Source of the DNA: Escherichia phage Lindwurm
Sequence record: NC_134264.1
Strand: one strand, 5' to 3'
Length of the DNA: 64,000 nucleotides
How positions within the stretch are numbered: position 1 is the stretch's first letter; each line of letters starts with the position of its first letter. Below the pieces are notes generated by a model. That model saw only the letters and a program-made list of their open reading frames with translations, was not told the DNA's origin and ran no database searches. A program made the translations under genes and the position numbers. Below are positions 24,903-61,974 of this stretch, one piece after another.

Positions 24903-24926
24903 ATTATTACTTAACTAATGGGTGGA

Positions 24927-25373
24927 TTATTTACTTCCTGAACTTCCAAATCCACCTTCCCCACGATCAGTCTCCCCTAGTTTATCAACTATTTCAAAAT
25001 TATGCGTTGAGTAGTGCGGTACTACTACTAGTTGACAAAGTCTTTCAAAATTCTCCAGAGTTTGAATTTCAGAACCATAGTTATAGAGGTTCATCTTAAT
25101 AGTTCCACGATAGTCTGAGTCGATCACTCCTGTGGTATTTGCAATCATCAAATGACGTTTACCTAAAGAACTACGAGGAACTACCAAACCGAACCAACCT
25201 CGCGGAATTTCCACCGCGACACCGGTGTCAATCATTAAGGATTTGCCGGGTGCAATAGCACGTAAATCTGCAGCAGGGTTAGTACCAAAGAATGCTCGCA
25301 GATCCATACCTGCAGCATCTTCGGAACCAATCTTAGGCATACAATCTGGATGAGTTAACTTAATTTTAATCAT
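24927..25373 (-). CDS. dut: dUTPase
   Basis: Motifs RSSLGK, GVIDSDYRG typical of trimeric dUTPases. Confidence 0.9.
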   Translation of the reverse strand: MIKIKLTHPDCMPKIGSEDAAGMDLRAFFGTNPAADLRAIAPGKSLMIDTGVAVEIPRGWFGLVVPRSSLGKRHLMIANTTGVIDSDYRGTIKMNLYNYGSEIQTLENFERLCQLVVVPHYSTHNFEIVDKLGETDRGEGGFGSSGSK

Positions 25374-26245: not shown

Positions 26246-26727
26246 TATTTAATTAAGTCCTCAACAGATGCATGATGTAGCCACGGCTCAAATAAACCAA
26301 TTACGATTTCCATGTCTTTCTTATTTAACACCATATGGGTACGACTCATTAAGTTGTCAACCATCGGGTCTGAGCTATCCAAAGCTATTAACCACTGTCC
26401 TCTGTCTTTTTTGAATATTAATGCAGGTTTGGAGTTCATCTGCTCACCCTCACGTGAGCACTGCTGCCACCACTTCTCTAGAGTGGATTCACCAACATTA
26501 AATAAATTACTTGATATATTATCATCTTTATACCACTTAACTTCGAAGCAGTATTTACTAATGTGTCCGCTTTGTGGTGGAAGGTAGATGTCACCTTTCA
26601 GTCCGTGGCTCTGGCCAAAAGCACCAGAACCAGGAACACGTTCCCACTCAAGACCTGTACGTTCACGTAAAATATCTCTTACCTGATATTCACCACGTTT
26701 ACCTTTCTCTCTACTATCTACGGCCAT
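26245..26727 (-). CDS. Hjc-like Holliday junction resolvase / PD-(D/E)xK nuclease (putative)
   Basis: KGKRGEYQVRDIL...GSG...GDIY...CFEVK pattern resembling archaeal-type Hjc resolvases. Confidence 0.5.
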   Translation of the reverse strand: MAVDSREKGKRGEYQVRDILRERTGLEWERVPGSGAFGQSHGLKGDIYLPPQSGHISKYCFEVKWYKDDNISSNLFNVGESTLEKWWQQCSREGEQMNSKPALIFKKDRGQWLIALDSSDPMVDNLMSRTHMVLNKKDMEIVIGLFEPWLHHASVEDLIK

Positions 26728-26730
26728 GTT

Positions 26731-28569
26731 TTATTCTAAGTAGGAAAATCCTTCTGCATCTTTTTTGACAGTAATCTTATGAGCTAATGGATGCGTATGC
26801 CCATGAGAAACAATGATAGAATTTAGACTTTCTTCCTCATTTAATAGTTCAACGAGAGTATCAAGTCCTTTAGTATCAATAAAGCTAATTACTTCATCAA
26901 GGAATAGTAAATTAATATTAACTTTACTAATAGATGTTAGTAGCATTCGAATAGCTAACAGAGTTGCTAGGTTGATTCGACTTTGTTGACCAGTAGAGCA
27001 GTTCTCCATACTGGTACGATTTCCATCATTGAAGATTACTACTTGTAATTTTGTTTCATCAAGTTCAAATCCAAGTGCGAACTTACCACCAGTCATAATG
27101 GAAAGGTATTTATTGATAAGCTCTTCAAATACTTTCACACTATGCTCTAGCTTATATCCTACCAGATTCTTTAATGCAGCGATCAGAATATCGAGATCAG
27201 CAACAGCTTCTGATACCTCATCCAGTTTGGAAGTAATCTCAGACATTTCTGCCTCAGCTTTCTCAATCTGTTCTAGTTTCGCTTTATATTTTGCATTGGC
27301 TAATTCGACATTTGCATTATGCTCTTTGGCAATTGCAACCTTAGAACGGCCATCAGCGATTTCCTGTTCTAATTGTCGGATTTGCACCTGTAGGATTTGC
27401 ACATTGAGTTCTTCAAAAGAAGCATCACTCATTGAGTTTTTGAACTCGTCTCTAGCTGTTACTGCCTTATCCAAAGCATCCTTTGCTCTAGTATATGCAG
27501 TGTATTCAAGTTGTTCTTTCTTCAGCTGTTCTAGCTTAGCTTCTAGAGATTGCTTCTCTTTGAACAGAGGATCATATTCTGTTCTAGCCATATCCATTGC
27601 TTTTTGAGCAGCGGTTGTATCCAGATGAGTACCACAAGTAGGACATTCAGTATTTGAAGCTTCTTGCTTGAACTTCTGATAACGTTTCTTGACTTCGCCC
27701 GCACGTGAGGTCACAATCGTTAGGTCACACGTAACACTTGAGATCTCTTCGTTTTGGTCGGTGGGCGCAGGTAAATTTTTGAAAGGCTCGAAAGATTGTT
27801 CGGCAACTTGTACAGCTTTGTCCAAATTACGCAATTTAGTAATATTAGCCTCTTGTGACTTGGCTAATGCCGCCTTAATTTTCGATTCAGTAAGTTCTTG
27901 TGCTAATGGCTCTTCATCAAACTCAGGCACTTCTACAGGTTCCTGCAAAGTTCCCAGATTATTCTTTCCATTAAGGATTTTCGTAATTACAGCCATTTGG
28001 CCCTGCAAATTATTCAAGGTATTTGCTATTTCTTTACGGTCAGCCTTAATAGTTTCTGACATTTCTTTGTACTGTTCTTGATTGAACAAGTTAACAAGGA
28101 AAGCCTTACGTGTTGCATCCGTTGCTTTTAGAAAGTCTAGATTGGAACCCACTGATTGATAAATTAGTTTGGTGAACGTTTGGAAGTCACCTCCCATAAT
28201 CTCTTCAATCATCTTGTATGTTTGAGTTGCCGTGTGTCCACTAATATCTTCTCCATTCTTAATAAGAGTTACTTTAGCAGTTGATTTAACTACTTTATGC
28301 AGTTCGTACTCATCTTCATCTTTCGAGAAGTAAGCGTGCATATCATACTCTTTTTTAGGAGAAGACCAAGAGAACAGAGCATCCTTCTTAATACCACGTG
28401 AGTTCTTATTATAGAATAGTTCTTCAATAACAGTGGCGATGGTGGATTTCCCTAGCCCATTGCCGCCAATTAATTGAGTAACTGGATTCTTATCGAAATG
28501 AATTACGATGTCCTTACCGTAAGACATAACGTTACTAAATTTTAGTGTTTTAATTGTAATCTTTGACAT
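26731..28569 (-). CDS. SbcC/Rad50-like recombination ATPase
   Basis: Walker A GGNGLGKST, long central coiled coil, Walker B LLFLDEV; start moved to ATG at 28569 (MSKITIKTLKF). Confidence 0.8.
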   Translation of the reverse strand: MSKITIKTLKFSNVMSYGKDIVIHFDKNPVTQLIGGNGLGKSTIATVIEELFYNKNSRGIKKDALFSWSSPKKEYDMHAYFSKDEDEYELHKVVKSTAKVTLIKNGEDISGHTATQTYKMIEEIMGGDFQTFTKLIYQSVGSNLDFLKATDATRKAFLVNLFNQEQYKEMSETIKADRKEIANTLNNLQGQMAVITKILNGKNNLGTLQEPVEVPEFDEEPLAQELTESKIKAALAKSQEANITKLRNLDKAVQVAEQSFEPFKNLPAPTDQNEEISSVTCDLTIVTSRAGEVKKRYQKFKQEASNTECPTCGTHLDTTAAQKAMDMARTEYDPLFKEKQSLEAKLEQLKKEQLEYTAYTRAKDALDKAVTARDEFKNSMSDASFEELNVQILQVQIRQLEQEIADGRSKVAIAKEHNANVELANAKYKAKLEQIEKAEAEMSEITSKLDEVSEAVADLDILIAALKNLVGYKLEHSVKVFEELINKYLSIMTGGKFALGFELDETKLQVVIFNDGNRTSMENCSTGQQSRINLATLLAIRMLLTSISKVNINLLFLDEVISFIDTKGLDTLVELLNEEESLNSIIVSHGHTHPLAHKITVKKDAEGFSYLE

Positions 28570-29527
28570 ATTTCGCAGCTCTAGCCAAGATTCTATCAAT
28601 GTCGCCTTGAGATAGCTTCTCGACTTCACGGAAGTAAAGTTCAAGTTCACCTAACATATCAAGATCAACAAGATTTAACTTAGCGTCTTTAGTAACTCGA
28701 TGGTTAATCTTCTTATCTAATAAATCAGAGTCTTTGATAGACTTTAATTGAACAACGTCACCAGTAACCTCATAGACTACACGATCATAATCACTAGGTT
28801 CCATCTCTTCACCAGCTCCGATTGTTTTACGAATCAGTTGTGGTAAATCACCGAGTTCAATCCATTCTACTTTTAATGTATTGGTATCAACGATAAAGCA
28901 ACCATTTGTACCTTTTGTGCGTTCTCTATGGAACGATGTAGTTAATGGAGACCCTGGGTAGAGAAGTCTAGTAGATCCGATAGTCTGGCTATTAGTATAA
29001 GAATGTAAATCGCCAGCAATTACAGTATCATAACAGTTGTACTTAGTTAGATCAATTTCTGGTTTTACATGCGGAGGGATTTCACCGCGAACATGCGTGA
29101 AACATAGTTTTGATTCAGATGGTTTCCACTTAGATTTATGGATTTCATCATATGGAACAATATCAAATTCAGGGGAACGATATGGTTTGGTAATTACTTC
29201 CCACTTCCCACTAGTTACTTTATTAATAACTCCTGCATAGTGATACAGACATGAAATGGTTTTAGTTAGCATTTCATGATTTCCAGTAAAGATTTTGCCT
29301 GGATGGTCAAGTCTTGACATGAACTGTTCAAGCAGTTCTATTTCTTCTGACGACGGGTCGGCAACATCAAGTATATCACCACCAGCAATATGAAGATCAC
29401 AGTTATGATTATGGAATATATCATTTAACCGTTCTCCTAGCATCAGGAAGCGACGCTTCTGCCATTCCTTTGGAACTTTATCTTGTCCTAGTTTGATATG
29501 ATGATCAGCACTAAATAATATTCTCAT
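28550..29527 (-). CDS. SbcD/Mre11-like nuclease
   Basis: Metallophosphatase motifs ADHH, GNHE, GDLH. Confidence 0.8.
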   Translation of the reverse strand: MRILFSADHHIKLGQDKVPKEWQKRRFLMLGERLNDIFHNHNCDLHIAGGDILDVADPSSEEIELLEQFMSRLDHPGKIFTGNHEMLTKTISCLYHYAGVINKVTSGKWEVITKPYRSPEFDIVPYDEIHKSKWKPSESKLCFTHVRGEIPPHVKPEIDLTKYNCYDTVIAGDLHSYTNSQTIGSTRLLYPGSPLTTSFHRERTKGTNGCFIVDTNTLKVEWIELGDLPQLIRKTIGAGEEMEPSDYDRVVYEVTGDVVQLKSIKDSDLLDKKINHRVTKDAKLNLVDLDMLGELELYFREVEKLSQGDIDRILARAAKYVKDYN

Positions 29528-29531
29528 TGGT

Positions 29532-29556
29532 TAAAAAGAAAGGGGCCGAAGCCCCT
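29532..29556 (-). terminator. hairpin (UUCG loop on - strand) between ssb-like gene and sbcD-like gene
   Basis: AGGGGC-TTCG-GCCCCT then TTTCTTTTT on - strand. Confidence 0.6.
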
Positions 29557-29563
29557 CTATTTA

Positions 29564-30337
29564 TTAGTCGTCCAGATCGCTTGCAGCTTCTGTGTCAATA
29601 CCTTTCTGGGAGCCTGCATTGCTATTACCAGATTTGGCATCATCATCTTTATTCTCACGACCCTCCATGAAGGCTTGAATTGCTTCTTTCTGCTCTTCAT
29701 AGGTAGGAACCGGATAGGTTTGTTCCAGAGAAGGAACTTTTTCGAACTTAATGATGTCGCCATCTTCATCACACATAGCTTCACCGATCAGATCTACATC
29801 TGCAGCATATTGCTTAGATTCCGCACTGTTAGGATCTTGCAGCTTAATCTGGAACTGCATAGCAGCAATCTGCTGTACATCATACTCAGTATCGAAACCT
29901 TTACCTTTTTTCTCGATAGAAATATCAATATCAAACGGAGTCGCCAGATTCAACTGCTTCATGATAGACTGGATGCCTTTCAGAATAGTAGCCTTGACTT
30001 CCATTACTTTCAGTTTGTTATCAGAACGGTCGATAACAAAAGCGATATAGTTTTTCTTCGGTTTCAGCGGAACACGATTACCATCTTTATCCAACTCTTT
30101 CTCGAAGAAGCCCATCTCATGAACTGGATCAGCTTTACCACGAACAAAGCTCTCTTTGTCACGGTTAAAACGGAGACATTCGAAAGGAGCTACGTTACCC
30201 TCTTTATTAGTCAGCCAATAGACATAACGTGGAAGAACGCCAGAAACGATACGAACACGAGTGATACCGTTGTTGAACTTCAGGAATTCGATTTTATCGT
30301 TAGAACCGCCAGTAGTTTCGCCCCAAGACTTAGCCAT
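29564..30337 (-). CDS. putative ssDNA-binding protein
   Basis: Acidic C-terminal tail (ASDLDD) and position among replication genes; weak inference. Confidence 0.4.
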   Translation of the reverse strand: MAKSWGETTGGSNDKIEFLKFNNGITRVRIVSGVLPRYVYWLTNKEGNVAPFECLRFNRDKESFVRGKADPVHEMGFFEKELDKDGNRVPLKPKKNYIAFVIDRSDNKLKVMEVKATILKGIQSIMKQLNLATPFDIDISIEKKGKGFDTEYDVQQIAAMQFQIKLQDPNSAESKQYAADVDLIGEAMCDEDGDIIKFEKVPSLEQTYPVPTYEEQKEAIQAFMEGRENKDDDAKSGNSNAGSQKGIDTEAASDLDD

Positions 30338-30614
30338 ATTTTATTTCCTCTTTAAAGATTAATTTCGATTTGTTAATTGCGATTAGTGGGTTAGTGTCGA
30401 TTACTAAACGTGGTATCCATACTGGAACATATTGTATGTCCAAACTAGGATCGTTTGTAAACTTGTATTCGGCATAATTTCGTAGACTTAAAATTCCTAG
30501 ATATTCTGCCAGTTGTCTATTAGACAATTTATTTGGATTATCAACTATTGTTGATTCATTCAAAATGAATGAGGAACCGACCAATAATTGGTGAGCATCA
30601 GGCTCTGTAAGCAT
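30330..30614 (-). CDS. hypothetical protein (94 aa)
   Basis: ORF downstream of tandem promoters; no recognisable motif. Confidence 0.4.
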   Translation of the reverse strand: MLTEPDAHQLLVGSSFILNESTIVDNPNKLSNRQLAEYLGILSLRNYAEYKFTNDPSLDIQYVPVWIPRLVIDTNPLIAINKSKLIFKEEIKYG

Positions 30615-30721
30615 TCTTTTGAATAGCTTAATAATTAGGTCGGAATTTCCTCTAGCTAGTAAGTATAGCTTTTCATAATCGAAGAATTTAATTTTTGTTT
30701 TCTCCTCGAATTTATGTATAT

Positions 30722-30751
30722 ATTATACTAGATTTCGAGAGAATTTAGCAA
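30722..30751 (-). promoter_or_regulatory. sigma70-like promoter (TTGCTA-18-TATAAT)
   Basis: Read on - strand; followed by conserved CATAAATT leader. Confidence 0.6.
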
Positions 30752-30822
30752 CTAAAATTTTTATTTTTCTGCTTCGGACTTTCTTATCAATCCGAAACTT
30801 TCTCTCTCAAATTTATGTATAT

Positions 30823-30851
30823 ATTATACATCATTTATGAGCTATTGCCAA
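30823..30851 (-). promoter_or_regulatory. sigma70-like promoter (TTGGCA-17-TATAAT) overlapping helicase stop
   Basis: Read on - strand; leader CATAAATTTGAGAGAG. Confidence 0.6.
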
Positions 30852-32187
30852 ATGCAATTTTAGCTAATTGAACTGCTTTCTCCGGAGTCATAGTAATAGT
30901 TTTCCACCCGTTATTACGATATACTGCCATACGTCCAGAAGCCTGTCTTAGTCCAGTGCCGCCTTTCATAATTAAATCTACAACAATAGGGTCGAGTTTA
31001 CCATCGACAATACGTTGAACACGTCCTGCAAGCTGTTCAATGAGAGATTCATTATTAATGAGACTTCCCATTATTAAACAAGATAGCTCATTAAGGGAAA
31101 TACCTTCAGAGAAGATACTTTGAGCGGCTGCAAGTACACAAGGTCCACCTTTTGCTATATCTTCCTGAATTTTTAATCGGTCATCTAAGTGGGTTGCCCC
31201 TATAATTTCATGTGTTGTAACACCACGCTGTGCAAGAGCTTCTAGTACTGTTTGGATTAGCTCTGTTCTGTCACTTACAATGAGTACTTTATGCCCCATA
31301 TTCACGTATAAATGTGCTAGATTTATAATAGTCTCTCGATATTCAGGATGGTTGTACACATCATTAGCACGTAATGCCCACGGTACGTTTTGGTTTCCTG
31401 ATAACTCAACAGGCACGGAGTACCTATGGATTGTAGGTGCAACAGTATTATTAACCGGTGGGCTAAAGATCTTATATCCAAAGAAATCTTTGAACATAAC
31501 TTGTAGACCATCTTTTCGTTTTAATGTACCGGATAGTCCAATCTTATAGCGAGCACATGATATTTCTAGGAAGTTAGTGAAAGTTGTAGCCACACAATGG
31601 TGAACCTCATCAACTATAACAGTACCGAATACTTTAGAAAGATTATTCGCATGTTTATTCACTGTTTGAATATTACTGACCACAATTGGTGGATCAATAT
31701 TGTATTTCCCAGAACCTATGATGCCTGGTTCAAACCCAAACCATTTACGAACTTCTGCCGCCCACATCTCACGAATGGATGTATTCGTACATATTACCAG
31801 AGTTTTCTGTCCAAATTTATACGCAAGTGCAAGGGCTAAGATAGTTTTACCAAACCCAGGCTTACCATTAATAATACAGGTATCATCACACTCTTCATAT
31901 ATTGGGAGCTGGTCTTCTTCACGCAGTTTGAACTTAGGTTTTGGTATATCTACTGGAGCTAATGTGCGTTTATCGACTAATTCGTATTTTACTCCTTTAG
32001 CATCTAGTAAATCCAGACGCGTAATAGGAATCCACTTAATCTCTTTGGCAACAACACCACTATTCTTATACATAATAGGGTATTTACTAGTCATTGTCTC
32101 TATGTGATAAGTGGTTTGCTTACTACAATAATCCCAAAGTTCATCATCGGGCTTGAAATAGGCTTTATTAGATATAACAACCTTCAT
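30835..32187 (-). CDS. SF2 DNA helicase (450 aa)
   Basis: Walker A GKPGFGKT, DEVH box (VIVDEVHH); length matches T5 D10 helicase as recalled. Confidence 0.8.
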   Translation of the reverse strand: MKVVISNKAYFKPDDELWDYCSKQTTYHIETMTSKYPIMYKNSGVVAKEIKWIPITRLDLLDAKGVKYELVDKRTLAPVDIPKPKFKLREEDQLPIYEECDDTCIINGKPGFGKTILALALAYKFGQKTLVICTNTSIREMWAAEVRKWFGFEPGIIGSGKYNIDPPIVVSNIQTVNKHANNLSKVFGTVIVDEVHHCVATTFTNFLEISCARYKIGLSGTLKRKDGLQVMFKDFFGYKIFSPPVNNTVAPTIHRYSVPVELSGNQNVPWALRANDVYNHPEYRETIINLAHLYVNMGHKVLIVSDRTELIQTVLEALAQRGVTTHEIIGATHLDDRLKIQEDIAKGGPCVLAAAQSIFSEGISLNELSCLIMGSLINNESLIEQLAGRVQRIVDGKLDPIVVDLIMKGGTGLRQASGRMAVYRNNGWKTITMTPEKAVQLAKIAFGNSS

Positions 32188-32681
32188 AATTTTATTCTAA
32201 GTCTAGGAATTTCAGGCTCCTCTTGATGGACTTGGTAAATAACAGGGCTATTATTTACCAGAATATAGCTTATATAAGCTGGAACATAGGATAATACAAA
32301 TGGATATGGAACTTTAGCTACATAGCATTGGTATTTTCCGTTATAAATTCTAGCTGAATGCAAAACTTTAGAGGTGACAACATCATAGAACGTAGTTTTC
32401 TTCCAGTTAATAAGATTTCCATCAGAATCTATAAATTGGCTACGTTTTGACCCAACTAGTTGAGACAACATTGATATTCTACCTCTAATAGGATAGAGCT
32501 TGTATGGTAATTCTTTCCGTTTCTCAAATAGAATAAGTCTACGTTGAGAAAATGTGCCAGGCAACTTCCTGTTATCTAGCACATATTTATTATATCTTGT
32601 TGTAATTACGGAATAATCACCTTCTTGCTCAATTGATACAAACGCCCGTAAAGCATATATGGGCAATTTGAAATCAAGCAC
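32184..32681 (-). CDS. hypothetical protein (165 aa) between polymerase and helicase
   Basis: Start overlaps polymerase stop, stop overlaps helicase start; no motif recognised. Confidence 0.5.
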   Translation of the reverse strand: MLDFKLPIYALRAFVSIEQEGDYSVITTRYNKYVLDNRKLPGTFSQRRLILFEKRKELPYKLYPIRGRISMLSQLVGSKRSQFIDSDGNLINWKKTTFYDVVTSKVLHSARIYNGKYQCYVAKVPYPFVLSYVPAYISYILVNNSPVIYQVHQEEPEIPRLRIKL

Positions 32682-35241
32682 CGAGAATCCTTCTCACGTT
32701 ATCCAAATCTTTACATACAGCAATAAACTTATCATCCTTGTATTTGCTATGATCTGGATGCTCTTTATCCATTGCAGCTAGTTTCTTATACTCGAACTCT
32801 GCATCAAGTAATACACCCTTGACATAACGAGTATATTCATCATCATCAATACAAGCGATTGATGGGTGCTGTTTCTTCATCTTACCACAAGAATAGTCAC
32901 GAGAACCTCCAGCTTCAGAATCTGAATCAATACCAATCGGGCAACCAGGAATACTGATACCACGGTCTTTCTGAATATTACGAATCAGGATTTCATTGTA
33001 TTGGTCGATCAAATCCTCACGAACAATAGCAACTACGGAGTCGTGAACCAGCATAACAATCTTCATCTCTTGTTCTAGGCCAAGAGAAATGATCTCATTA
33101 TCTGCATCTACAGCACCTAAAAGGAGACTATCAGAAGAAGCAGACTGAATGATTGCGTTAAATCCAGAGCGGATTTCTTCACCCTGAACACCACGGTCTT
33201 CGGAATGGATATTATGCAGACGACGTTTACGCCCAAAGTGGCTATAGATAAATCCATGATTCTTGATCTGGTCGTGACACTTATCAATCCAACGCTTAAG
33301 CTGCGGGAACTGACCGAAGTAAGTTTCAATGTACTCTTTAGCATCTGCAACAGTACACTCTACAAACGGTTCACCTGTCTTAGCAGCTTGTTCCAGAAGA
33401 GCTTCGTTAACAGAATGAGCTACTTTAGCTGGGCCAGAACCATACAAAATACCGAAGGTAATTGCCTTAGCAGCCTGGCGCAGGGCTGGGAATAATTTTT
33501 TAACATCACGAGGTTCGCATTGTAGCTTAAATACCATATGTGCGATGTTAGAGTGGAAGTCAGGGTATTTATCAGGTTCATTTCTCATGTTGATAAATAC
33601 CTGTTGCATATTTCTATCACCAGATAGAACAGCAGCATAATAAACTTCCGCAGTTGTTAAGTCCCATGCGATTACACGATACCCGGGAGGGGCTACTACA
33701 CAACCCTTGATAATAGATTCATCACGAGGTAACTGTTGCAGGTTCAGTTTACCAGAAGAACTCAGACGACCAGAAGTAGTCATATGTTCATGGAAGCCAG
33801 TACGAATGCAACCATCAGCATCAATGCTCAGAAGAATCTTCTCAACGTAAGTAGAGATCAGCTTAGTCAGCTTACGAATCTCTAGTAGGGTCTTAGCAAT
33901 TGGATGCTGCGTAGACAATTCGTTCAGAGCTTCTGCATCTGTAGAGTCTGCTCCAGTATCCGTCAATTTACCTGTTGGAGTTAAGCCAACATAATCAAAC
34001 AGAAGAACACGGAGTTGTTTAACAGAGTTTGGGTTAAACGCTTCGTTCTGATCTTTCTCTAGCTGAACGACTTCTGGGTAAGTATACAGCTTCTCACGGG
34101 CTTTATTCAGATTATGAGTTAACTGATACTGAGCTTCTTTCAAGCGATCAATAGAAATTGGTACACCACGATCCTCAACACGCTGGAGAAATACACAACC
34201 AGGCATTAGAACATCATAATACAGACTGCAAAGTTTTTCATTCTTCTCAATTTTTGGTAAGAAGAAGTTGTGCAAACGTATGGTTGCATCGGTATCTTTC
34301 GCAGCGTAAGGCCACATAATATCAAACGGAATTAAATCATAGGTGAAATCTTCTTTCTTGATTTTATGTGCTTTGCAGTAATCCTCTTTGAACTTATCTA
34401 GTTCGAAGTCATAGTCACCCATATCGGTATACTTCATTGCTAGAGATTTCAAGCCATGAGTACCACGACGTTCATCTAGAACATAATGCTGCAACATAGT
34501 ATCATGGAGCCTGCGTTCTTTATGTGCTTTATCAAAAGTAAGTCCCAGATGGTACTTATAAAAGTGCATATCAAACTTCAAGTTGTGAAAAACAATAGTG
34601 TGGTTTTCACTATCCAGAATTTTCTGGAGATAATATACTGCAACCTCTGTGAGACAATCAGAATCGATATATACACCCTGATACTCTTGGTGAGACATAG
34701 AAACACCAAGCAGATAACCATCTCGACAGTATAGTGCTGAGGTTTCGGAGTCGAATGCGACAGGTCCGATAACCATATTATACACCATCTTGATATATTC
34801 TTCTGCCTCCTCAGGGTCAGTAATAGGACGATAATCACCAGCTTTTGCAACCTTCTCACGACCATTGATAATATCGTGGATATTTTCTACTGTTGCATCG
34901 AAAACTGGTTTCATTTCAGGTTTAAAGTGTAACTGGGCTGGGCTGATACTCGCAATCCAGTTAGCATATCCATTATACTCTACACGTTTACCAGTATAGT
35001 CACCAATGCCTTTCTTACCTGCGAAATACAGGAAAGGTTCAGCACCTACTAGTATAACAAAATCATAATCATTCGGATCAAATGGGTTTTCTGGTGTTCC
35101 AATAGTAATGTGCTTTTTAAGCAAACGACCAGATAACTTCTCGTTACACATATGGAATACATCAACTTCCTCGCCGTATAGCTGGAAATGTTTATCGTAA
35201 CGAGTGTTGTTTAGGGCTTTATCAACTACTGCGATTTTCAA
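32674..35241 (-). CDS. DNA polymerase, family A, with 3'-5' exonuclease domain (855 aa)
   Basis: Exo I FDSETSAL; Pol A motif B RQAAKAITFGILYGSG; motif C LVHDSVV; length equals T5 polymerase as recalled. Confidence 0.95.
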   Translation of the reverse strand: MKIAVVDKALNNTRYDKHFQLYGEEVDVFHMCNEKLSGRLLKKHITIGTPENPFDPNDYDFVILVGAEPFLYFAGKKGIGDYTGKRVEYNGYANWIASISPAQLHFKPEMKPVFDATVENIHDIINGREKVAKAGDYRPITDPEEAEEYIKMVYNMVIGPVAFDSETSALYCRDGYLLGVSMSHQEYQGVYIDSDCLTEVAVYYLQKILDSENHTIVFHNLKFDMHFYKYHLGLTFDKAHKERRLHDTMLQHYVLDERRGTHGLKSLAMKYTDMGDYDFELDKFKEDYCKAHKIKKEDFTYDLIPFDIMWPYAAKDTDATIRLHNFFLPKIEKNEKLCSLYYDVLMPGCVFLQRVEDRGVPISIDRLKEAQYQLTHNLNKAREKLYTYPEVVQLEKDQNEAFNPNSVKQLRVLLFDYVGLTPTGKLTDTGADSTDAEALNELSTQHPIAKTLLEIRKLTKLISTYVEKILLSIDADGCIRTGFHEHMTTSGRLSSSGKLNLQQLPRDESIIKGCVVAPPGYRVIAWDLTTAEVYYAAVLSGDRNMQQVFINMRNEPDKYPDFHSNIAHMVFKLQCEPRDVKKLFPALRQAAKAITFGILYGSGPAKVAHSVNEALLEQAAKTGEPFVECTVADAKEYIETYFGQFPQLKRWIDKCHDQIKNHGFIYSHFGRKRRLHNIHSEDRGVQGEEIRSGFNAIIQSASSDSLLLGAVDADNEIISLGLEQEMKIVMLVHDSVVAIVREDLIDQYNEILIRNIQKDRGISIPGCPIGIDSDSEAGGSRDYSCGKMKKQHPSIACIDDDEYTRYVKGVLLDAEFEYKKLAAMDKEHPDHSKYKDDKFIAVCKDLDNVRRILGA

Positions 35242-35302
35242 ATTTAATCTCCTCTTGGTAAGTAAGTATAACTTCAGTGTTTCTTCTCTAACTTACCAAT
35301 AT

Positions 35303-35331
35303 ATTATATCAAAATATTGGGATAATAGCAA
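35303..35331 (-). promoter_or_regulatory. sigma70-like promoter upstream of DNA polymerase (TTGCTA-17-TATAAT)
   Basis: Read on - strand. Confidence 0.65.
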
Positions 35332-35664: not shown

Positions 35665-35690
35665 AGTAGCTCCTCAGTTATTTAGGACTA

Positions 35691-36581
35691 TTATACCAAA
35701 TCTTTAAGCGATTCAGCAACTAAAATTTCAATACGTTTTGCTAACATATCAATTTCATCTTTGTTTAAATCACCCGGATCTTTGCCTTCGGGCAGAAGAA
35801 AGTTAGCAACTACAGGTGTTAAACGCGTTTTTGTACGAATTAACTTGGCCAATGCTTGTGCAGCTTTATTACCAGAAGCATCATTATCTAGTAAGATAAC
35901 AACAACTTTTACACCAGCAATAATATAAGGACTGAACTTATCTGCAATGTTATCCGAAGTAAACTGATGTGTACCAAAGCAGCAAGAAGCATAGTCTATA
36001 CCATTATCCTCTAGGTTCAGCATATCAAAGATACCTTCAACTAGAATAAGAACTGGAGTATTATATCGTACAGGGAAAATCGGTGGTGAAACTTGTTTTG
36101 GTTTTACTAAGTATTTAGGAGGGGCAGAACTGTTTATAGAACGACCCAAAAATAGGATATTGCGTCCAACAGCATCTGTGATTGGAAATACAATTCTGCC
36201 TTCCCAGTCTGCTTGGTGTTGGAAAGCAAAATATTTCTTCAAGGTCTTAGAACTTATACCTCGGAAATCACCTTCGAAAAGGTAAGCAGATTCAGGAATT
36301 GCAAGATTCGTTGATCCATTCCTAATCTCTGAAATCTTTTTGCGTACTTGCGATAGCCTTGGGGACTGTAGGTACTGAGTCTCATTAAAATAATGGTAAA
36401 TGCTCGGTATACCTTTACCGAAGCCACAACTCAAGCAGTGCATAATACCTGTTTCAGGATCAATACGCAAACTTGGGTGTTTATCGTCATGATCTGGATT
36501 GAGACAACAGATGAGGATGTCCCCACCTGTGTCTTTATATTCAATGCCTTTCAGATCAAGTAGTTCTGTTATTCTACTCAT
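35691..36581 (-). CDS. DNA primase (DnaG-like, zinc finger + TOPRIM)
   Basis: CLNPDHDDKHPS...HCLSCG zinc-binding motif; TOPRIM-like EGIFD and LLDNDASG. Confidence 0.8.
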   Translation of the reverse strand: MSRITELLDLKGIEYKDTGGDILICCLNPDHDDKHPSLRIDPETGIMHCLSCGFGKGIPSIYHYFNETQYLQSPRLSQVRKKISEIRNGSTNLAIPESAYLFEGDFRGISSKTLKKYFAFQHQADWEGRIVFPITDAVGRNILFLGRSINSSAPPKYLVKPKQVSPPIFPVRYNTPVLILVEGIFDMLNLEDNGIDYASCCFGTHQFTSDNIADKFSPYIIAGVKVVVILLDNDASGNKAAQALAKLIRTKTRLTPVVANFLLPEGKDPGDLNKDEIDMLAKRIEILVAESLKDLV

Positions 36582-38050
36582 ATATCGCTGGCCTGTTCAC
36601 CTGTTGAATTTTCAGCTTTGTCTTTCTTAGCACGTTTAGGTTGAGCCGGCTTATCCTTCTCAATAGGGATAACGAACTCAGCTTCCATTTGAGATATATC
36701 TTCCATTGCTAGGTTGGTAGTGTTATCCATTCGCAGAGTTTCCCAGTTCATTTTAGGCATAAACTTCACGCTATCAGAAGAACGAGTCTTAACGAAGTCA
36801 AACATAATAGCACCTTGACCATTATCAGCTTTTGCAGCGTTAAGATTAGCAGCCATGTCTGCGGAATCAAGAATCCCCTTTGACATACGTGTTCTACCAT
36901 CTTGATCGATCTGGTAAGGAGCTACACCAGCCACGTTATGTTTCTGGCAGATAGATTTGAAAGACGAGCTAACAACCATCTGTTCTTTCCAGTCATACAT
37001 ATCAATGGTTTTAGAGTCTGGAAGTCTGGTTTGGTTAATATAGTCCAGTAAAGCTACTGTAACTTTATCTCCATATCTAGCAACTAATTTATTTAATTCT
37101 ACGTCAACTGTTGTAATAGACAGCTCAGGGTCATAAACAATAATCATAGGAGTATGTAGCTCATACCCTTCTATTAGCTTACTTTCCATATCGTAGAAAT
37201 CACTCATCTTAGCCATTGTGTACTGTTTAACGAAGTTATCGAAAAGCTCTTCACCACCATTAAACATTCTAGCTCTAGTTCTGGCTAATCTCAACAGAGC
37301 TGCACCTTCTAGAGTATTATTACGCATTGCTAGTGCTGATACACCAGCTAACATGGCTAGATTACGCCTAAATACTTCATGTTCTTTCATCTCAATTGAG
37401 AAGTATGGAGCAATATCTCCATTCAAATATTGCTGAACCTGTATGTTTGAACAGATAATGGATTTACCAGTACCACGCCAACCACCAAGCAGTAACGTTT
37501 CTGTGCGAGCTAAACCAATTTGAGCGTCGAACTCATTACAAATACCAAGAGCGATTAAGTTCAGTTTGGTATCTTCTTCTCTCTGGAAAATACGCATGTT
37601 ATCTGCGTTGAATACTTTTCCAGTATTCGTTACTTTCTCTTCTAATTTTAAGTGAAGGGAGGCAACTCGGTTGAGAATTTCTCCCTGATCCAGCATTGTT
37701 AAATCTTGAAGCACGTCTGTTTCTAGAAGCTTCAGGAACAAATCCTGCGTATATTCGGCCTCTAGGACTTCAAGTGCCTGTTCCATGCTCACTTCTGGAA
37801 TTTGAGTGTTAGCTAAGACGACTAGAGCTTGAGAAAGGCGGGCGTTCCTATTAGCTTCAAGCATAAGTGCGTCAATGGACGGCATTGTGTTATATTTTTT
37901 ATAATAATTCTGGACGGCTTGGTAAATTGAGGAGAAAGCGTCATTAAAATGATCTTTATGCAGTTTTGAGAATGTTTCCAATGCTATTTGCTTCTGTTCG
38001 GAAGCTAGAAGCATCTTCAACACTACAGCTTGCACGTTAAACAAGGTCAT
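36578..38050 (-). CDS. DnaB-like replicative helicase
   Basis: Walker A GGWRGTGKS, RecA-like C-terminal domain; start moved to ATG 38050 preceded by AAGGAGA. Confidence 0.8.
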   Translation of the reverse strand: MTLFNVQAVVLKMLLASEQKQIALETFSKLHKDHFNDAFSSIYQAVQNYYKKYNTMPSIDALMLEANRNARLSQALVVLANTQIPEVSMEQALEVLEAEYTQDLFLKLLETDVLQDLTMLDQGEILNRVASLHLKLEEKVTNTGKVFNADNMRIFQREEDTKLNLIALGICNEFDAQIGLARTETLLLGGWRGTGKSIICSNIQVQQYLNGDIAPYFSIEMKEHEVFRRNLAMLAGVSALAMRNNTLEGAALLRLARTRARMFNGGEELFDNFVKQYTMAKMSDFYDMESKLIEGYELHTPMIIVYDPELSITTVDVELNKLVARYGDKVTVALLDYINQTRLPDSKTIDMYDWKEQMVVSSSFKSICQKHNVAGVAPYQIDQDGRTRMSKGILDSADMAANLNAAKADNGQGAIMFDFVKTRSSDSVKFMPKMNWETLRMDNTTNLAMEDISQMEAEFVIPIEKDKPAQPKRAKKDKAENSTGEQASDI

Positions 38051-38132
38051 TCTCCTTTGCACGCTTTCGTGCCTTCTAAATGCAAAAAGGGGAAGGAGCA
38101 TAGCCCCCTCCCCTTAGGTTTAATTTACCAGA

Positions 38133-38900
38133 TTATTCAGCAGCCGCAGCTTTTGCATCCAGTTTAGCACGCTTAGCGGCACCATCATAGTCCTTAGCAA
38201 CCAGACCACGACGAGACAGCATAGATTTAACACCCCGCTCAGACTTACCAGTTTTCTCAGCAATCTCAGCAACAGTCATGTTAACCAGATCCAGACCTTC
38301 TAACAGATCTTCACGAGTTTTAGCACTTGAAGTTTCCTGTACCGGCATAGCAGCAATACGACCTTCACGAAGCAGACTCAGAGCTTTACCACGGATCTGC
38401 TTAATATTGCGACCGAAGTGAGCAGCGATAGCTTCAATAGTAGCACCAGCAACAACCTGATTAACAAAATCAGTTTCTTCATCCGGAGTGAAGGAACGAA
38501 CAGCAGCAGCTTTTTCAGTTGGCTTAACAGAAGCAGTCATTTCCAGACTCAGAATCTTACCTTGTACCTGCTTAGCACCGAACTGACCACCAGCTACAGC
38601 AGCAGCGATTTCAGCATAGGTATACTGACCAGCATGAGCGTTCAGGAAATCAACCAGTTCAGCTTCCTGCTCAGGAGTCCACGGAGATTTCTGCACTTCG
38701 TTAGCTTTTTGTACTTCAAAACCTTCTTTACGCAGTTTAGAGCCAACAGAGCGAGCAGTAACATCTTTGCCGGTTTCCGCAGCCAGTTCAGCAGCGATAG
38801 CAGCTACTTGTTCTTGAGAGATTACAGCAACACCCAGAGCAGTGGCTTTTGCTTTCAGAGACTCGGTTACACCTTCTACGTTCCAGTTCAGTTTAGACAT
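38133..38900 (-). CDS. DNA-binding protein built from four ~30-aa helix-rich repeats (T5 D5-like, putative)
   Basis: Internal repeats (e.g. TYAEIAAAVAGGQFGAKQVQGKILSL / ATIEAIAAHFGRNIKQIRGKALSL / MTVAEIAEKTGKSERGVKSML). Confidence 0.55.
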   Translation of the reverse strand: MSKLNWNVEGVTESLKAKATALGVAVISQEQVAAIAAELAAETGKDVTARSVGSKLRKEGFEVQKANEVQKSPWTPEQEAELVDFLNAHAGQYTYAEIAAAVAGGQFGAKQVQGKILSLEMTASVKPTEKAAAVRSFTPDEETDFVNQVVAGATIEAIAAHFGRNIKQIRGKALSLLREGRIAAMPVQETSSAKTREDLLEGLDLVNMTVAEIAEKTGKSERGVKSMLSRRGLVAKDYDGAAKRAKLDAKAAAAE

Positions 38901-39675
38901 TATTATTTTTCTCCAATAGTTCTTTAATCGACAGGATTTCTATCCCATTCGTTTCGGCTTTCTTATAAGATGAGGAAGAACGCTTCGATTCATCCTCACA
39001 GATTAGGTATTTGACGTCTTTAGTAACGGATTTCTTAACCGTATATCCTAGACCTTCTAAATAGTTTGTTGCATCCGTTCGATTTGCAAAATCTTGCAAA
39101 GATCCGGTAATACATACCGCGATTCCATTTGGCTGGGCAATTAATTCATCTGTAATGATGACGTCAGCTTTAGTGCCCTTAATACCGGTTGAAAATTTCC
39201 ACGGTAGTTCGATAACATCCTTGCCTTGTGGGGAATTTAGCCAGGCTTTATAATTTTCTCCAGCCTTGCCGTCAGCCTTCACATCGTGGAAGCTAGTGCA
39301 ATTTTGGGATAATTTCTTTGCTGCAACCTCTCCAATTAGAGAGATTCCTAAAGAACCGAGAACTGAACCAAAGTCAATGTCTCCGCGAACTTTAGTATTT
39401 AATTCGCTAATTAGCTTAGCGGCAACCTTGCTACCCACGGCTCTAACCAAATCTTCTTCGGTTAGGTAAAATAGTTCTGAAATCTTCGTCAGCTCCAGCT
39501 TCTCAATAGTTTTTGGGCCAAAGCCCTTTAACTTCATTTTTGTACAGAAGTTCTCAATTAACTTACTTGATTGCGCTGGACAGTTGGACTTATTCCGACA
39601 GAATAATTGTCCGTTGACAAGATCTAGCTTAGAACCACAAGAGGGACATTGTGTTGGAATTTCGATTTTCATCAA
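38893..39675 (-). CDS. NAD-dependent DNA ligase, C-terminal subunit (Zn finger, HhH, BRCT-like)
   Basis: CPSCGSKLDLVNGQLFCRNKSNCPAQ zinc ribbon at N-terminus; HhH-like GFGPKTIEKL; own promoter upstream. Confidence 0.8.
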   Translation of the reverse strand: MMKIEIPTQCPSCGSKLDLVNGQLFCRNKSNCPAQSSKLIENFCTKMKLKGFGPKTIEKLELTKISELFYLTEEDLVRAVGSKVAAKLISELNTKVRGDIDFGSVLGSLGISLIGEVAAKKLSQNCTSFHDVKADGKAGENYKAWLNSPQGKDVIELPWKFSTGIKGTKADVIITDELIAQPNGIAVCITGSLQDFANRTDATNYLEGLGYTVKKSVTKDVKYLICEDESKRSSSSYKKAETNGIEILSIKELLEKNNNV

Positions 39676-39702
39676 ATTTCTTCCTTATCAATTTATATAA
39701 AT

Positions 39703-39731
39703 ATTATAGCAAGTATTTAAGCATTTAGCAA
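39703..39731 (-). promoter_or_regulatory. sigma70-like promoter inside the split ligase locus (TTGCTA-17-TATAAT)
   Basis: Read on - strand; followed by AAGGAAG RBS and ATG of the C-terminal ligase subunit. Confidence 0.7.
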
Positions 39732-39874
39732 CTACAATTTTAACTAACTTTGCTTACCCTCGCCATAACTTTCTATCCCTCAACTGAATGATAATAGTAT
39801 ATACCTAAGCGGCGAAAATGTCAATAACCACTTTATAATTCCGATATGGTAGATGGGTAGCAAAGGGTTATGTA

Positions 39875-40846
39875 TTAATCGTATACTCGCTCTACTATGC
39901 ACGGGATTACACCACCAGCACGAATTACTCGAATCTGGCAACCGATCTCTAGATCGAGAGAGTTAATATAATCAACGTTATTAAGGGTCGCTTTAACAAT
40001 TGTAGCATCATCAATAATTACCGGCTCGAAATAACCAACTGGAGTTACTTTACCAGAAGCCCCTACCTGCCACTCAACTTTAGTAAGAGTTGTAATCTCG
40101 CCTTCTTCATCCTCTTTAATAGCGAATGCTCCACGAGGGAATTTATTAGTCCAGCCTTCACGGAAGAATTTGTTGTTGTCATTAATACGAACAACTTTAC
40201 CGTCCGTCGGAATCCATTTAAAGAAGGAACGCACATTAACAACTGTTAAGAAGTCCTCATTCTCTAGCCAAAGCATATCTTTTAAATATGCTTCTGTAAT
40301 ACCTACAGATTCAGCAGAACACTGGATACCGTATGCAACGAAGATTAGACCACCTTCTCCGATACGTTGTACGAAATCATCACTATCTTTGAGGTTAATA
40401 GCACCAGAGGCAAAGTTACGTTTATTTTCTACTTCTTTTGTAATTAGAACTTCACCAGTGATTTGAGTAGGTACTTTTTGGGAAATCTTTTTAGGAATAT
40501 TCAGCAATCTTACGTTGCTTGTGACATCATTCCCTAGAATACCATTACCACGAGTTAGTGCTTGAACAAATTCTCCATTAATATATAACAGAGAAATCGC
40601 ACAACCATCTAACTTATCAGTTTCTACTTGACCTAATGGGTTAAACGGAGGTTTATCCCCACGATTATAATAAACTTTCTGTAAAGAATACATACGATAC
40701 AGATGTGGGATATCTCCTTTAGGCCCAATCTCTTCCTCTATTGGGAATCTTTTAATAAGACGATCATATTCTTCATCAGAGATTAAAGACATTCCCTGGT
40801 AATACGCTTCTTGACAACGTTTAATAAAGTCTTTTACATTAGTCAT
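39875..40846 (-). CDS. NAD-dependent DNA ligase, N-terminal adenylation/OB subunit
   Basis: KxDG adenylation motif (ETDKLDGCA), LigA-type Ia/NTase features. Confidence 0.85.
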   Translation of the reverse strand: MTNVKDFIKRCQEAYYQGMSLISDEEYDRLIKRFPIEEEIGPKGDIPHLYRMYSLQKVYYNRGDKPPFNPLGQVETDKLDGCAISLLYINGEFVQALTRGNGILGNDVTSNVRLLNIPKKISQKVPTQITGEVLITKEVENKRNFASGAINLKDSDDFVQRIGEGGLIFVAYGIQCSAESVGITEAYLKDMLWLENEDFLTVVNVRSFFKWIPTDGKVVRINDNNKFFREGWTNKFPRGAFAIKEDEEGEITTLTKVEWQVGASGKVTPVGYFEPVIIDDATIVKATLNNVDYINSLDLEIGCQIRVIRAGGVIPCIVERVYD

Positions 40847-40877
40847 TTATTTATATCTCTCATCAATTTATATAAAT

Positions 40878-57167: not shown

Positions 57168-57697
57168 TAACGGCATTATATGCAGTTGGGCCGAATGGGG
57201 AGTTCGGCCTCCGAGGTAAACTCCCCTGGGGTTCCTTCAGAGAAGAACTAGATGCTTTCTACTCTCAACTGGACGTGTTGAACCCAGATAACATCATCAT
57301 TGGTGCGGGTACTTATTTAGCACTTCCAGAAGTTGTTCGGCAACGTATGATTGGAGAATCTGACCTCTTTATTCGTGCGGATCGTCCTCTGCCTGATGAT
57401 ATTAAACATGGTATCTATACCCCAATTTCAAAGATTGGGGATACATTACCTACGTTCTTAAAAGATCAGCAGACAGTGGTTTTAGGTGGTGCAACATTAC
57501 TGTACGAAATGTATATTCATGGACATATTGAAAGTGCTTTTGTATCCACAATCTTTAGTACTCAAAAACTAGAGGCAGATGTATATCTGGATAATACGAT
57601 TCTAGATTACAACTATGAATCTACTCGTTTAGTTTACGCAACTGGCGCAAACAGTGATAACAGCCTGCGATTTGTACAGGAATTGGTTACTTATTAA
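57164..57697 (+). CDS. folA: dihydrofolate reductase
   Basis: GKLPW motif, GGATLLYEMY region; located immediately upstream of thyA. Confidence 0.8.
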   Translation: MITALYAVGPNGEFGLRGKLPWGSFREELDAFYSQLDVLNPDNIIIGAGTYLALPEVVRQRMIGESDLFIRADRPLPDDIKHGIYTPISKIGDTLPTFLKDQQTVVLGGATLLYEMYIHGHIESAFVSTIFSTQKLEADVYLDNTILDYNYESTRLVYATGANSDNSLRFVQELVTY

Positions 57698-58536
57698 TGC
57701 AACAATATTTAAAAATTCTAACAGATGTAATTTTACTGGGTGAACCACGTAACGATCGTACAGGGACAGGCACGGTTTCAATTTTTGATTCCTATGCTAA
57801 GTTCGACCTACGTGAAGGATTTCCCGCCGTAACCACTAAACGTCTAGCTTGGAAATCAGTAGTTGGAGAACTCCTATGGTTTTTATCTGGATCTACAAAT
57901 CTCCATGATCTGCGAGTATTCACATTTGGGCGTGACGAAGGACAGTGGACTATCTGGACTCCAAATTATGAAGACCAAGCTATAAGTATGGGCTATGACA
58001 ACGGTAATCTAGGACCAGTATATGGTAAACAGTGGCGTAACTTTGGCGGACGAGATCAGATTCTAGAACTCATTGAGGGTCTCAAGAATAATCCACATGG
58101 TCGTAGACACCTAGTATCTGCATGGAACGTAGCTGAACTGGATAAGATGGCATTACCACCATGTCACTATGGTTTCCAATGTTACGTAAGTAATGATGGA
58201 TACTTAGACCTTAAATGGACACAACGTTCTGTAGACTGTTTTCTAGGCCTACCTTTCAATATTGCTAGTTATGCTTTATTAACACATATCCTAGCAAAAT
58301 TGACTGGATTAAAACCTCGTTATCTCATCTTTAGTGGTGGAGATACACATATCTACAGTGATCATATAGAGCAAGTAGAGGAGCAAATGAAACGTAAACC
58401 ACGTCCTTTGCCAACTCTAGTAATGCCAGAGTTTGTAGATCTCTATGATTTATTAGAGAATAATACTGCGGCTTGGTCTTTCAAGCTGGAAGGGTATGAT
58501 CCGCATCCAGCTCTTAAAGCTAAAATGTCCTCTTAA
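57697..58536 (+). CDS. thyA: thymidylate synthase
   Basis: NDRTGTGT, LLWFLSG, catalytic PPCH motif. Confidence 0.9.
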   Translation: MQQYLKILTDVILLGEPRNDRTGTGTVSIFDSYAKFDLREGFPAVTTKRLAWKSVVGELLWFLSGSTNLHDLRVFTFGRDEGQWTIWTPNYEDQAISMGYDNGNLGPVYGKQWRNFGGRDQILELIEGLKNNPHGRRHLVSAWNVAELDKMALPPCHYGFQCYVSNDGYLDLKWTQRSVDCFLGLPFNIASYALLTHILAKLTGLKPRYLIFSGGDTHIYSDHIEQVEEQMKRKPRPLPTLVMPEFVDLYDLLENNTAAWSFKLEGYDPHPALKAKMSS

Positions 58537-58542
58537 CTTAAG

Positions 58543-58567
58543 TAGCCCTTCGGGGCTATTATATTTG
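58543..58567 (+). terminator. rho-independent terminator after thyA (UUCG loop)
   Basis: TAGCCC-TTCG-GGGCTA then T-rich tract. Confidence 0.7.
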
Positions 58568-58576
58568 AAATTGTAC

Positions 58577-58606
58577 TTGCTTATTAAGTACAATTTCAAA
58601 TATAAT
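58577..58606 (+). promoter_or_regulatory. sigma70-like promoter (TTGCTT-18-TATAAT) embedded in a 12-bp-arm palindrome
   Basis: GAAATTGTACTT gcttatt AAGTACAATTTC spans 58567..58597 and overlaps the -35 element. Confidence 0.6.
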
Positions 58607-58635
58607 ATACTCAATAAGTACAAAAGGATAATAAA

Positions 58636-58698
58636 ATGAGTAGAGAAATTGAATTAGAACAAGCCCTTCTGAATTTACTCCAATTACTTGCAGGGTGA
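58636..58698 (+). CDS. short leader ORF (20 aa) with strong RBS; +1-frame ORF overlaps its 3' end
   Basis: AAAAGGATAATAAAATG with promoter upstream; stop TGA at 58696-58698. Confidence 0.3.
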   Translation: MSREIELEQALLNLLQLLAG

Positions 58699-59020
58699 TA
58701 AAGAAACTATTACTAAGGAACAGGTATTATTAATACTAGACTCTATCACTTCTAAATTCAGGACTTTAGAAGACTACTACTCTGTAGGCAATGGAGATGA
58801 GAAGGTAGAGTTATGTCTAAATCTCCTAGAAGATATGGGTTGGGATGAGGAAGATCAAGTAGGATATTTAGGTATATCTACAGAAATTCTAGAAAATACA
58901 GAGCATGAAAATATACTTGAAGTAAAGAGCAGAAGTGCTATTCGGTATAATACTTATGGTACAGGTATTACAGGAATAAAAGCATTACTTAGTATAGATA
59001 TAGGATGGTTAGATGAATAA
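58688..59020 (+). CDS. hypothetical protein (110 aa; TTG start in track; frame open from 58673)
   Basis: No independent RBS; may be expressed by +1 frameshift from leader ORF or may be a frameshifted gene. Confidence 0.4.
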   Translation: MQGDKETITKEQVLLILDSITSKFRTLEDYYSVGNGDEKVELCLNLLEDMGWDEEDQVGYLGISTEILENTEHENILEVKSRSAIRYNTYGTGITGIKALLSIDIGWLDE

Positions 59021-59561
59021 AAAGTTACCTAGCCAAGAAAGATTAAAAGAATTATTAATCTATGATCCAGATACCGGTATATTTACTAATAAGGTAAGTC
59101 GTGGTAGGGGAGGAAAAGCAGGTTCACCCGCTGGATACCTAAGAAAAGATGGCTATATAACTATTAAGATAGATAAAATAGATTATTTAGCACATAGACT
59201 AGCCTTTCTATACATGACAGGATCAATACCAGATTTAATAGACCACAAAAATAGGATTAGGTCAGATAATAGGTGGATAAACCTAAGAGAAGCTACAAGC
59301 CAGTCTAATAATAGAAACTGTACCGCATCGAGTAAATCTGGATATCTAGGTGTACACTGGAACAAACAATTACAGAAATGGCAAGTACAGGTGATTGATA
59401 ATAAAGGTAAAAATATTTATGGGGGTGTTTTTGACTACTTAGACCTAGAAAGTGCGGTCATAAAGGCTAATGAACTGAGAAAAACACTTCATGGTAGCGA
59501 AGCAGTTATAGAAGATTTCTATACTAACTATTACCCACCAGTAGAGGAACTTAATAAGTGA
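59013..59561 (+). CDS. HNH homing endonuclease with AP2-like C-terminal DNA-binding region
   Basis: YDPDTG...FLYMTGSIPDLIDHKNRIRSDNRWINLREAT; GYLGVHW...KWQ; between thyA and rnhA. Confidence 0.8.
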   Translation: MNKKLPSQERLKELLIYDPDTGIFTNKVSRGRGGKAGSPAGYLRKDGYITIKIDKIDYLAHRLAFLYMTGSIPDLIDHKNRIRSDNRWINLREATSQSNNRNCTASSKSGYLGVHWNKQLQKWQVQVIDNKGKNIYGGVFDYLDLESAVIKANELRKTLHGSEAVIEDFYTNYYPPVEELNK

Positions 59562-60034
59562 GCGTTTTCCACATTTACACAGATGGTGCTTGTAAGTCTA
59601 ACCCAGGTCCAGGTGCTTGGGGTTTTATTGTCTATGATGATAACGACGATCGTTTAGGTTCTAAATCTGGTTATAATCCTAAAACTACAAATAATGAGAT
59701 GGAACTCACAGCTATTGTAGAAGCTCTACGTTGGTCTGTTAAAAAAGATAATAGACCAATTGCTATCTATACTGACTCTGCTTATTGCAAAAACGGCATG
59801 GAAAGTTGGATGTTTTCTTGGCAAAGGAAAGGCTGGAAGAAAGCAGATGGTGAAGTTCCTCTTAATCTAGAACTTTGGCAGGAAGCATTTAAATTAACAC
59901 AGCAGTATATCAACTTTCATAATACTAATCCTACCTTTATTAAGGTTAAAGGACATTCTGGTATTAGTGGTAATGAAGCTGTAGATGCATTGTGTAATAC
60001 TGTTATTACTGAGCAAGAACTTGCCGAGATGTGA
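59558..60034 (+). CDS. rnhA: ribonuclease H (RNase HI-type)
   Basis: YTDGACKSNPGPGAWG, ELTAI, YTDS, HSGISGNEAVDAL motifs. Confidence 0.85.
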   Translation: MSVFHIYTDGACKSNPGPGAWGFIVYDDNDDRLGSKSGYNPKTTNNEMELTAIVEALRWSVKKDNRPIAIYTDSAYCKNGMESWMFSWQRKGWKKADGEVPLNLELWQEAFKLTQQYINFHNTNPTFIKVKGHSGISGNEAVDALCNTVITEQELAEM

Positions 60035-61752: not shown

Positions 61753-61974
61753 ATGCGTAATTTTGTAGCAAAGAATGATTTTAACCGTGCTAGCACCCAT
61801 AAGTCAGCTAGGGATTATACACGACTTTCTAGTCATGAGGTAATGGATCTAGCAGTGGATGAGTTAGACTTAGATGACCTCTATATGGAAGAAAACTGGG
61901 ATGTCAGTGAGGATATGCTTCCTGGTTTTAAAGACCCCAAGAAGTGGGAGTCTATTAAAGAGACAGCTCTTTAA
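61753..61974 (+). CDS. hypothetical protein (73 aa)
   Basis: GGAG RBS. Confidence 0.4.
   Translation: MRNFVAKNDFNRASTHKSARDYTRLSSHEVMDLAVDELDLDDLYMEENWDVSEDMLPGFKDPKKWESIKETAL

Follow-up and report, generated by a model that had tools for sequence, protein, structure and literature searches.

How a reading frame with a strong start comes to end after only 20 codons, upstream of and overlapping a longer frame in another register, is the question raised by a small locus in the genome of Escherichia phage Lindwurm (NC_134264.1), of which a 64,000-nucleotide stretch, referred to here as the window, was analysed. The sequence and the list of its open reading frames agree with the original prediction in describing a frame on the plus strand that runs from ATG 58636-58638 to TGA 58696-58698 behind a good Shine-Dalgarno sequence (AAGGA, 58624-58628, read from the sequence, with a 7-nt spacing to the ATG and a GGA core that is invariant in 10 phages). 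The peptide of this frame, with 20 sense codons, is MSREIELEQALLNLLQLLAG. In the +1 frame a stop at 58670-58672 is followed by an open stretch from 58673 up to TAA 59018-59020; as had also been stated, the earliest start codon within it (counting ATG, GTG and TTG) is the TTG at 58688, which, read by eye, has no Shine-Dalgarno-like sequence and which opens a 110-aa ORF (58688-59020). Three readings had been offered for this arrangement, namely a +1 translational frameshift that produces a fusion protein, a frameshift mutation or sequencing error, and a regulatory leader peptide.

Comparison with related phages makes it very probable that the locus holds an ordinary frameshift lesion, or a sequencing error, in a conserved T5-like gene, and neither a recoding site nor a leader peptide. 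Judged from the alignments, the 20-codon and 110-codon ORFs have not come together by chance but represent a single conserved gene cut in two. The feature is thus of an already-known kind: a conserved accessory gene broken by a one-base insertion.

The window is a segment of a Tequintavirus (T5-like, Demerecviridae) genome, and for the 24 kb between 40000 and 64000 the listed whole-length phage matches are about 95-97% identical. The local gene order is nrdB, frd (DHFR), thy, the 127-codon gene considered here, an HNH endonuclease gene, and rnh. Synteny is fixed by the upstream neighbour, the thymidylate synthase gene thy (57697-58536, plus strand, a 279-aa ORF), orthologues of which are annotated in VSe12, phiLLS, Bf23, HMD-P5 and PH204. 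Downstream, on the same strand, lies the HNH gene (59013-59561), whose product matches Pfam HNH_3 (PF13392; E 9.6e-14, 51.2 bits against a cutoff of 24.8) and whose orthologues in VSe12, phiLLS and Bf23 are annotated as HNH homing endonuclease or hegE. The ATG of the HNH gene overlaps the 3' end of the broken gene (ATGAATAA), and since its own AGGA can be read 7 nt 5' of that ATG, the HNH gene would not need to rely on translational coupling to the broken gene. A literature search on T5 homing endonucleases near thy yielded nothing specific. When 601 nt around the broken gene were used as a query, 110 phage records matched, with whole-query matches 78-99% identical and the best match, at 98.8%, in Salmonella phage VSe12.

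Among these relatives the gene is found in one piece. VSe12, phiLLS and Bf23 each have one annotated 384-nt CDS that starts at the same ATG and encodes a 127-aa hypothetical protein, and a tblastn search with the intact protein returned a single-piece, in-frame match to residues 1-127 in all 35 phage records that carry the gene. The uninterrupted orthologous ORFs measure 384-387 nt, and the frame is kept even in DaisyDussoix, where amino acid identity is about 74-75%. The same picture emerged from a search of 5.8 billion protein clusters, in which all 35 homologous clusters were 127-128 aa long with 100% coverage and in which neither truncated forms nor distant relatives were found. One cluster member, P0042 (from Logan/ENA, in the cluster of P0001), is listed at 130 aa instead of 127, which is probably due to an alternative upstream start call or to small N- or C-terminal variation. 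Between the repaired gene and its counterpart in phage H8 there are 43 synonymous and 17 non-synonymous codon differences, a ratio that argues for purifying selection on a real protein-coding gene read in a single frame.

The family corresponds to PHROG 26840, which has no assigned function; queried with the VSe12 protein, which differs from the repaired window protein at a single residue, its profile was matched over positions 1-127 of 127 with an E value of 1.1e-84. Members of PHROG 26840 such as those of VSe12 (vse12_098, QEA09909.1), Bf23 (BF23_00110) and SSP1 (SSP1_137) are, like the repaired window gene, 127 aa long and occupy the same slot, in the order thy, gene, HNH hegE and rnh; clustering at 90% identity groups the repaired window protein with those of SSP1 and VSe12. 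Unlike these members, the window copy has an extra T that prevents its translation as one protein, and it also carries the replacement K3R. Pfam and NCBIfam searches with the 127-aa protein gave no match, and a profile search of the PDB gave only a chance-level match (E 0.22). An AlphaFold2 model based on a shallow alignment of 17 sequences was poor (mean pLDDT 59, pTM 0.44); it suggests a pair of helices at the N-terminus and, after them, a beta region of low confidence, the first helix being predicted, likewise at low confidence, for residues 3-18. In the 17-sequence family alignment residues Y14, Y17 and L18 are invariant.

The lesion itself can be placed to within three bases. In an alignment of the window with nine orthologous loci the single gap column within the gene is an extra T, in codon 14, at 58674-58676, where the window has TTT and all relatives have TT; the window reads GAATTTACTCC, and the nine relatives read GA(A/G)TTAC... 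or a diverged equivalent. Against VSe12 and HMD-P5 the gap at 58674 is again the only one in the broken gene. With one T deleted, a 384-nt ORF of 127 aa is restored, and its product differs from that of VSe12 by K3R only; past codon 3 there is not a single codon difference from VSe12. Codon 3 (58642-58644) is AGA (R) in the window and AAA (K) in nearly all relatives. Since the intact proteins P0001 and P0036 also carry R3, this residue is a natural polymorphism and no second lesion.

P0036 matches the repaired 127-aa protein residue for residue. Its coding sequence lies on a Logan contig of 1,923 nt, SRR23581745_50035, from a public assembly of run SRR23581745. Compared with window positions 57670-59593, this contig has 26 substitutions, none of them beyond 58542; over the 1,051 nt between 58543 and 59593, which take in the promoter region, the entire broken gene and the entire HNH gene, the sole difference is the T at 58674. 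The suggestion of a frameshift mutation or sequencing error in the gene is thus supported, both by the uninterrupted orthologues and by a contig that is one base different over more than 1 kb. Orthologues with a single uninterrupted ORF one base different had been named beforehand as the outcome that would point to an error or pseudogene, and that outcome was obtained.

The most economical account of the locus would then run as follows. A single Tequintavirus accessory gene, situated between thy and the HNH gene, would have a promoter of its own, with translation beginning at ATG 58636. The extra T in codon 14 (TT to TTT, 58674-58676) would shift the frame, and ribosomes that enter at ATG 58636 would read seven wrong codons and halt at TGA 58696-58698, with a 20-aa peptide as the product. 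The truncated frame (58636-58698, plus strand) is accordingly composed of the true start codon, 13 native codons, seven out-of-frame codons and a premature TGA, and in keeping with this the alignment to the orthologues holds for residues 1-13 of the 20-codon ORF and breaks down over residues 14-19. The remaining 114 codons would be left unread in the +1 frame; this remainder (58673-59020, plus strand) corresponds to native codons 14-127 and the stop, and contains the 110-codon TTG ORF (58688-59020). The gene product would presumably be lost, and its loss would be tolerated if, as seems likely, the gene is dispensable. Some near-full-length protein could still be made, either by low-level spontaneous +1 slippage or by re-initiation at TTG 58688. 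In its properties the window gene resembles other genes disrupted by a frameshift, be they young pseudogenes or products of a single-base indel error: an intact orthologue exists in every relative, there is a single non-triplet indel with an early stop a few codons on, and the remainder in the other frame is undecayed. Nothing substantive sets the window gene apart from this class.

The next question is whether the extra T is present in the phage or in the record alone. Because the gene, the promoter and the HNH gene otherwise match an intact public allele, the lesion must be either very young or confined to the record. We slightly favour, on the strength of the sequence comparisons, a genuine and very recent loss-of-function mutation, a preference that rests on the clean assembly of the rest of the window and on the accessory nature of the gene. 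The competing view, that the 127-aa gene is intact in the phage DNA, with TT, and that the extra T is an artefact of sequencing or assembly, is somewhat less probable and is still to be taken seriously. It draws on the insertion allele being unique to the window sequence, on the extra T lengthening a short homopolymer, and on the surrounding 1,051 nt being otherwise identical to the intact public allele; that the downstream part is wholly undecayed is also in its favour, although a very recent mutation would account for this equally well. A 25-mer with the insertion was absent from IMG/VR and from GTDB genomes, and the wild-type 24-mer had five matches in IMG/VR. Among JGI metagenome contigs neither the insertion 25-mer nor the wild-type pattern was found, which makes that negative uninformative.

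Against an artefact stands a census of indels relative to HMD-P5 and VSe12 over about 45 kb, in which the one at 58674 was the only uncompensated non-triplet indel within coding sequence, despite many longer A/T runs. The other non-triplet indels were compensated in divergent patches, were intergenic or, in one case (26733), lay at a gene's extreme 3' end, where its stop codon is. It follows that the assembly is not apparently prone to homopolymer errors, and a run that grows from two to three T would in any case be an unusual site for a consensus-level error. Several stretches of 5-10 kb, including 24926-35313 and 35689-40858, align with HMD-P5 free of gaps. Elsewhere in the window, a short patch at about 61850-61885 is highly divergent from both VSe12 and HMD-P5, its small gaps amounting to a net in-frame deletion of 15 nt in the window, and at about 55917 an A-run differs by 2 nt in length from that of HMD-P5, upstream of nrdB (start 56022) and apparently in the nrdA-nrdB intergenic region.

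Among the readings that would rescue a function from the two frames, termination followed by re-initiation survives best, and even so it is very unlikely. It holds that the lesion is real and that ribosomes, having finished at UGA 58696, start again on the UUG at 58688, which overlaps the short ORF, to yield an N-terminally truncated protein of 110 aa with some function. Short-range re-initiation after termination is established in bacteria, and the TTG, the earliest start of the +1 frame, lies 8 nt 5' of the stop. However, a UUG that lacks a Shine-Dalgarno sequence makes a poor site for re-initiation, the start is used by no relative, and no 110-aa form of the protein, as would be expected of the TTG product, occurs in the protein database. 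The product would moreover lack the first predicted helix (residues 3-18), including the invariant Y14, Y17 and L18. Re-initiation at UUG 58688 is compatible with the frameshift-lesion explanation. A related scenario takes the extra T as genuine and has the phage still obtain protein, a useful amount of the 127-aa form by spontaneous +1 slippage at GGG-UGA-U or a 110-aa form from UUG 58688; it would amount to a recently arisen, still unoptimised recoding or rescue event in a T5-like phage, and is a shade less credible again.

Programmed +1 frameshifting is more doubtful still, and we regard it as extremely unlikely. It proposes that a shift takes place within 58673-58695, where the one plausible site is GGG-UGA-U, with peptidyl-tRNA-Gly moving from GGG to GGU, and that a 127-aa fusion is the intended product. 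The original prediction had put the fusion at about 125 aa; the lesion proves to be the extra T at 58674-58676, and not the GGG-TGA at the end of frame 0, and the fusion would be exactly 127 aa, a length that, together with the strong start of frame 0 and the short overlap of the frames, can be counted in favour of recoding. The peptide across the junction of such a fusion would be LLNLLQLLAGDKETITK (...NLLQLLAG-DKETITK...). It is also conceivable that a GGG followed by a stop is prone to shift, as a stop codon in the A site is slow to decode and two of the three re-pairing positions are kept, as at sites of the prfB or antizyme type. The two-frame layout, however, was seen in none of the 35 phage records and in none of the 35 protein clusters, and the candidate site is not conserved, being, when read in the frame of the window, GAG-TGA in phiLLS and NBSal005, TGG-CGA in Bf23 and different again in DaisyDussoix; on these two grounds the idea of a +1 translational frameshift that produces a fusion had to be abandoned. 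The fusion would furthermore replace Y14 and Y17, invariant in 17 sequences, and alter S15, N16 and Q19, and an allele exists that is intact in frame and identical except for the T. The parallel with prfB (RF2), where CUU-UGA-C is preceded by a Shine-Dalgarno-like stimulator, is instructive in this respect. Both combine a short frame-0 ORF closed by UGA with a main body in the +1 frame, and in both the final sense codon might re-pair, though only in part, after a +1 shift. The GGG-UGA-U of the window, on the other hand, is not among the classical shift motifs; by eye there is no Shine-Dalgarno-like stimulator at the spacing found in prfB, the AGGG that is present overlapping the shift codon itself; neither the two-frame organisation nor the shift site is conserved, and there is no autoregulatory logic. 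The likeness is therefore superficial.

That the 20-codon ORF evolved as a regulatory leader peptide for the ORF downstream has a practically negligible chance of being correct, for although it is short, strongly initiated and placed directly upstream of a longer ORF that it overlaps, its first 13 codons encode what in all relatives is the conserved N-terminus of the 127-aa protein, no relative has a separate short ORF, and it arose through one inserted base. Transcriptional slippage was considered from the sequence and set aside, as a run of three T is too short for it.

The region upstream of ATG 58636 contains, as predicted, a promoter-like segment, which from its sequence may act as a promoter. 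Two hexamers on the plus strand, TTGCTT (58577-58582) and TATAAT (58601-58606), are separated by an 18-nt spacer, and both are invariant in 10 aligned phages; a promoter scanner predicted instead TTGAAA-18-TACAAT at 58565-58594, which overlaps them, and the annotation of Bf23 has a predicted early promoter at the equivalent site. Ahead of these elements and 3' of thy, a G+C-rich hairpin, GTAGCCCT-TC-GGGGCTAT (58542-58559, plus strand), is followed by a T-rich stretch. A consensus fold for nine phages, with one compensatory CG>GC pair, supports the hairpin, which is likely to be the thy terminator; the annotation of Bf23 has a rho-independent terminator at the equivalent place, and a simple terminator scan did not call it.

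Directly 3' of this hairpin there is also a perfect 22-nt inverted repeat, with arms at 58557-58578 and 58586-58607 and a 7-nt loop. The promoter-like hexamers lie inside it, TTGCTT being formed by the end of the left arm and the loop, and TATAAT being part of the right arm. Among nine aligned T5-like phages, two-sided changes keep complementarity in four of its pairs, for example GC>AU, GC>UA and UA>CG in Bf23 and DaisyDussoix. The repeat (58557-58607) could form a hairpin in read-through transcripts or in DNA, or it could serve a dimeric regulator as a palindromic operator.

The contents of the thy-rnh slot vary among Tequintaviruses; the window and about 35 records have the 127-aa gene and the overlapping HNH_3 gene. 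Only 34-35 of the 110 flank-matching records carry the 127-aa gene, and in Salmonella phage PH204 a single 93-aa gene (2633-2914 of the PH204 sequence, L012) replaces both it and the HNH gene. The PH204 protein is unrelated to the 127-aa protein (BLASTP E 7.2), and from this replacement and the patchy distribution it can be concluded that the gene is accessory. The overlapping HNH gene was found beside the 127-aa gene in all inspected loci and is the only contextual clue to its function; the two genes may travel together as a homing cassette.

The value of the locus lies mainly in annotation, and it does not represent a new kind of feature. It should be annotated as one frameshifted gene, or be corrected should the reads lack the extra T; neither a recoding site nor a 20-aa ORF followed by a 110-aa ORF initiated at TTG would be a fitting description. 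A genuine mutation would make the phage a natural knockout and would mean that this isolate can propagate without a conserved Tequintavirus accessory gene, which is a modest but useful fact about the gene.
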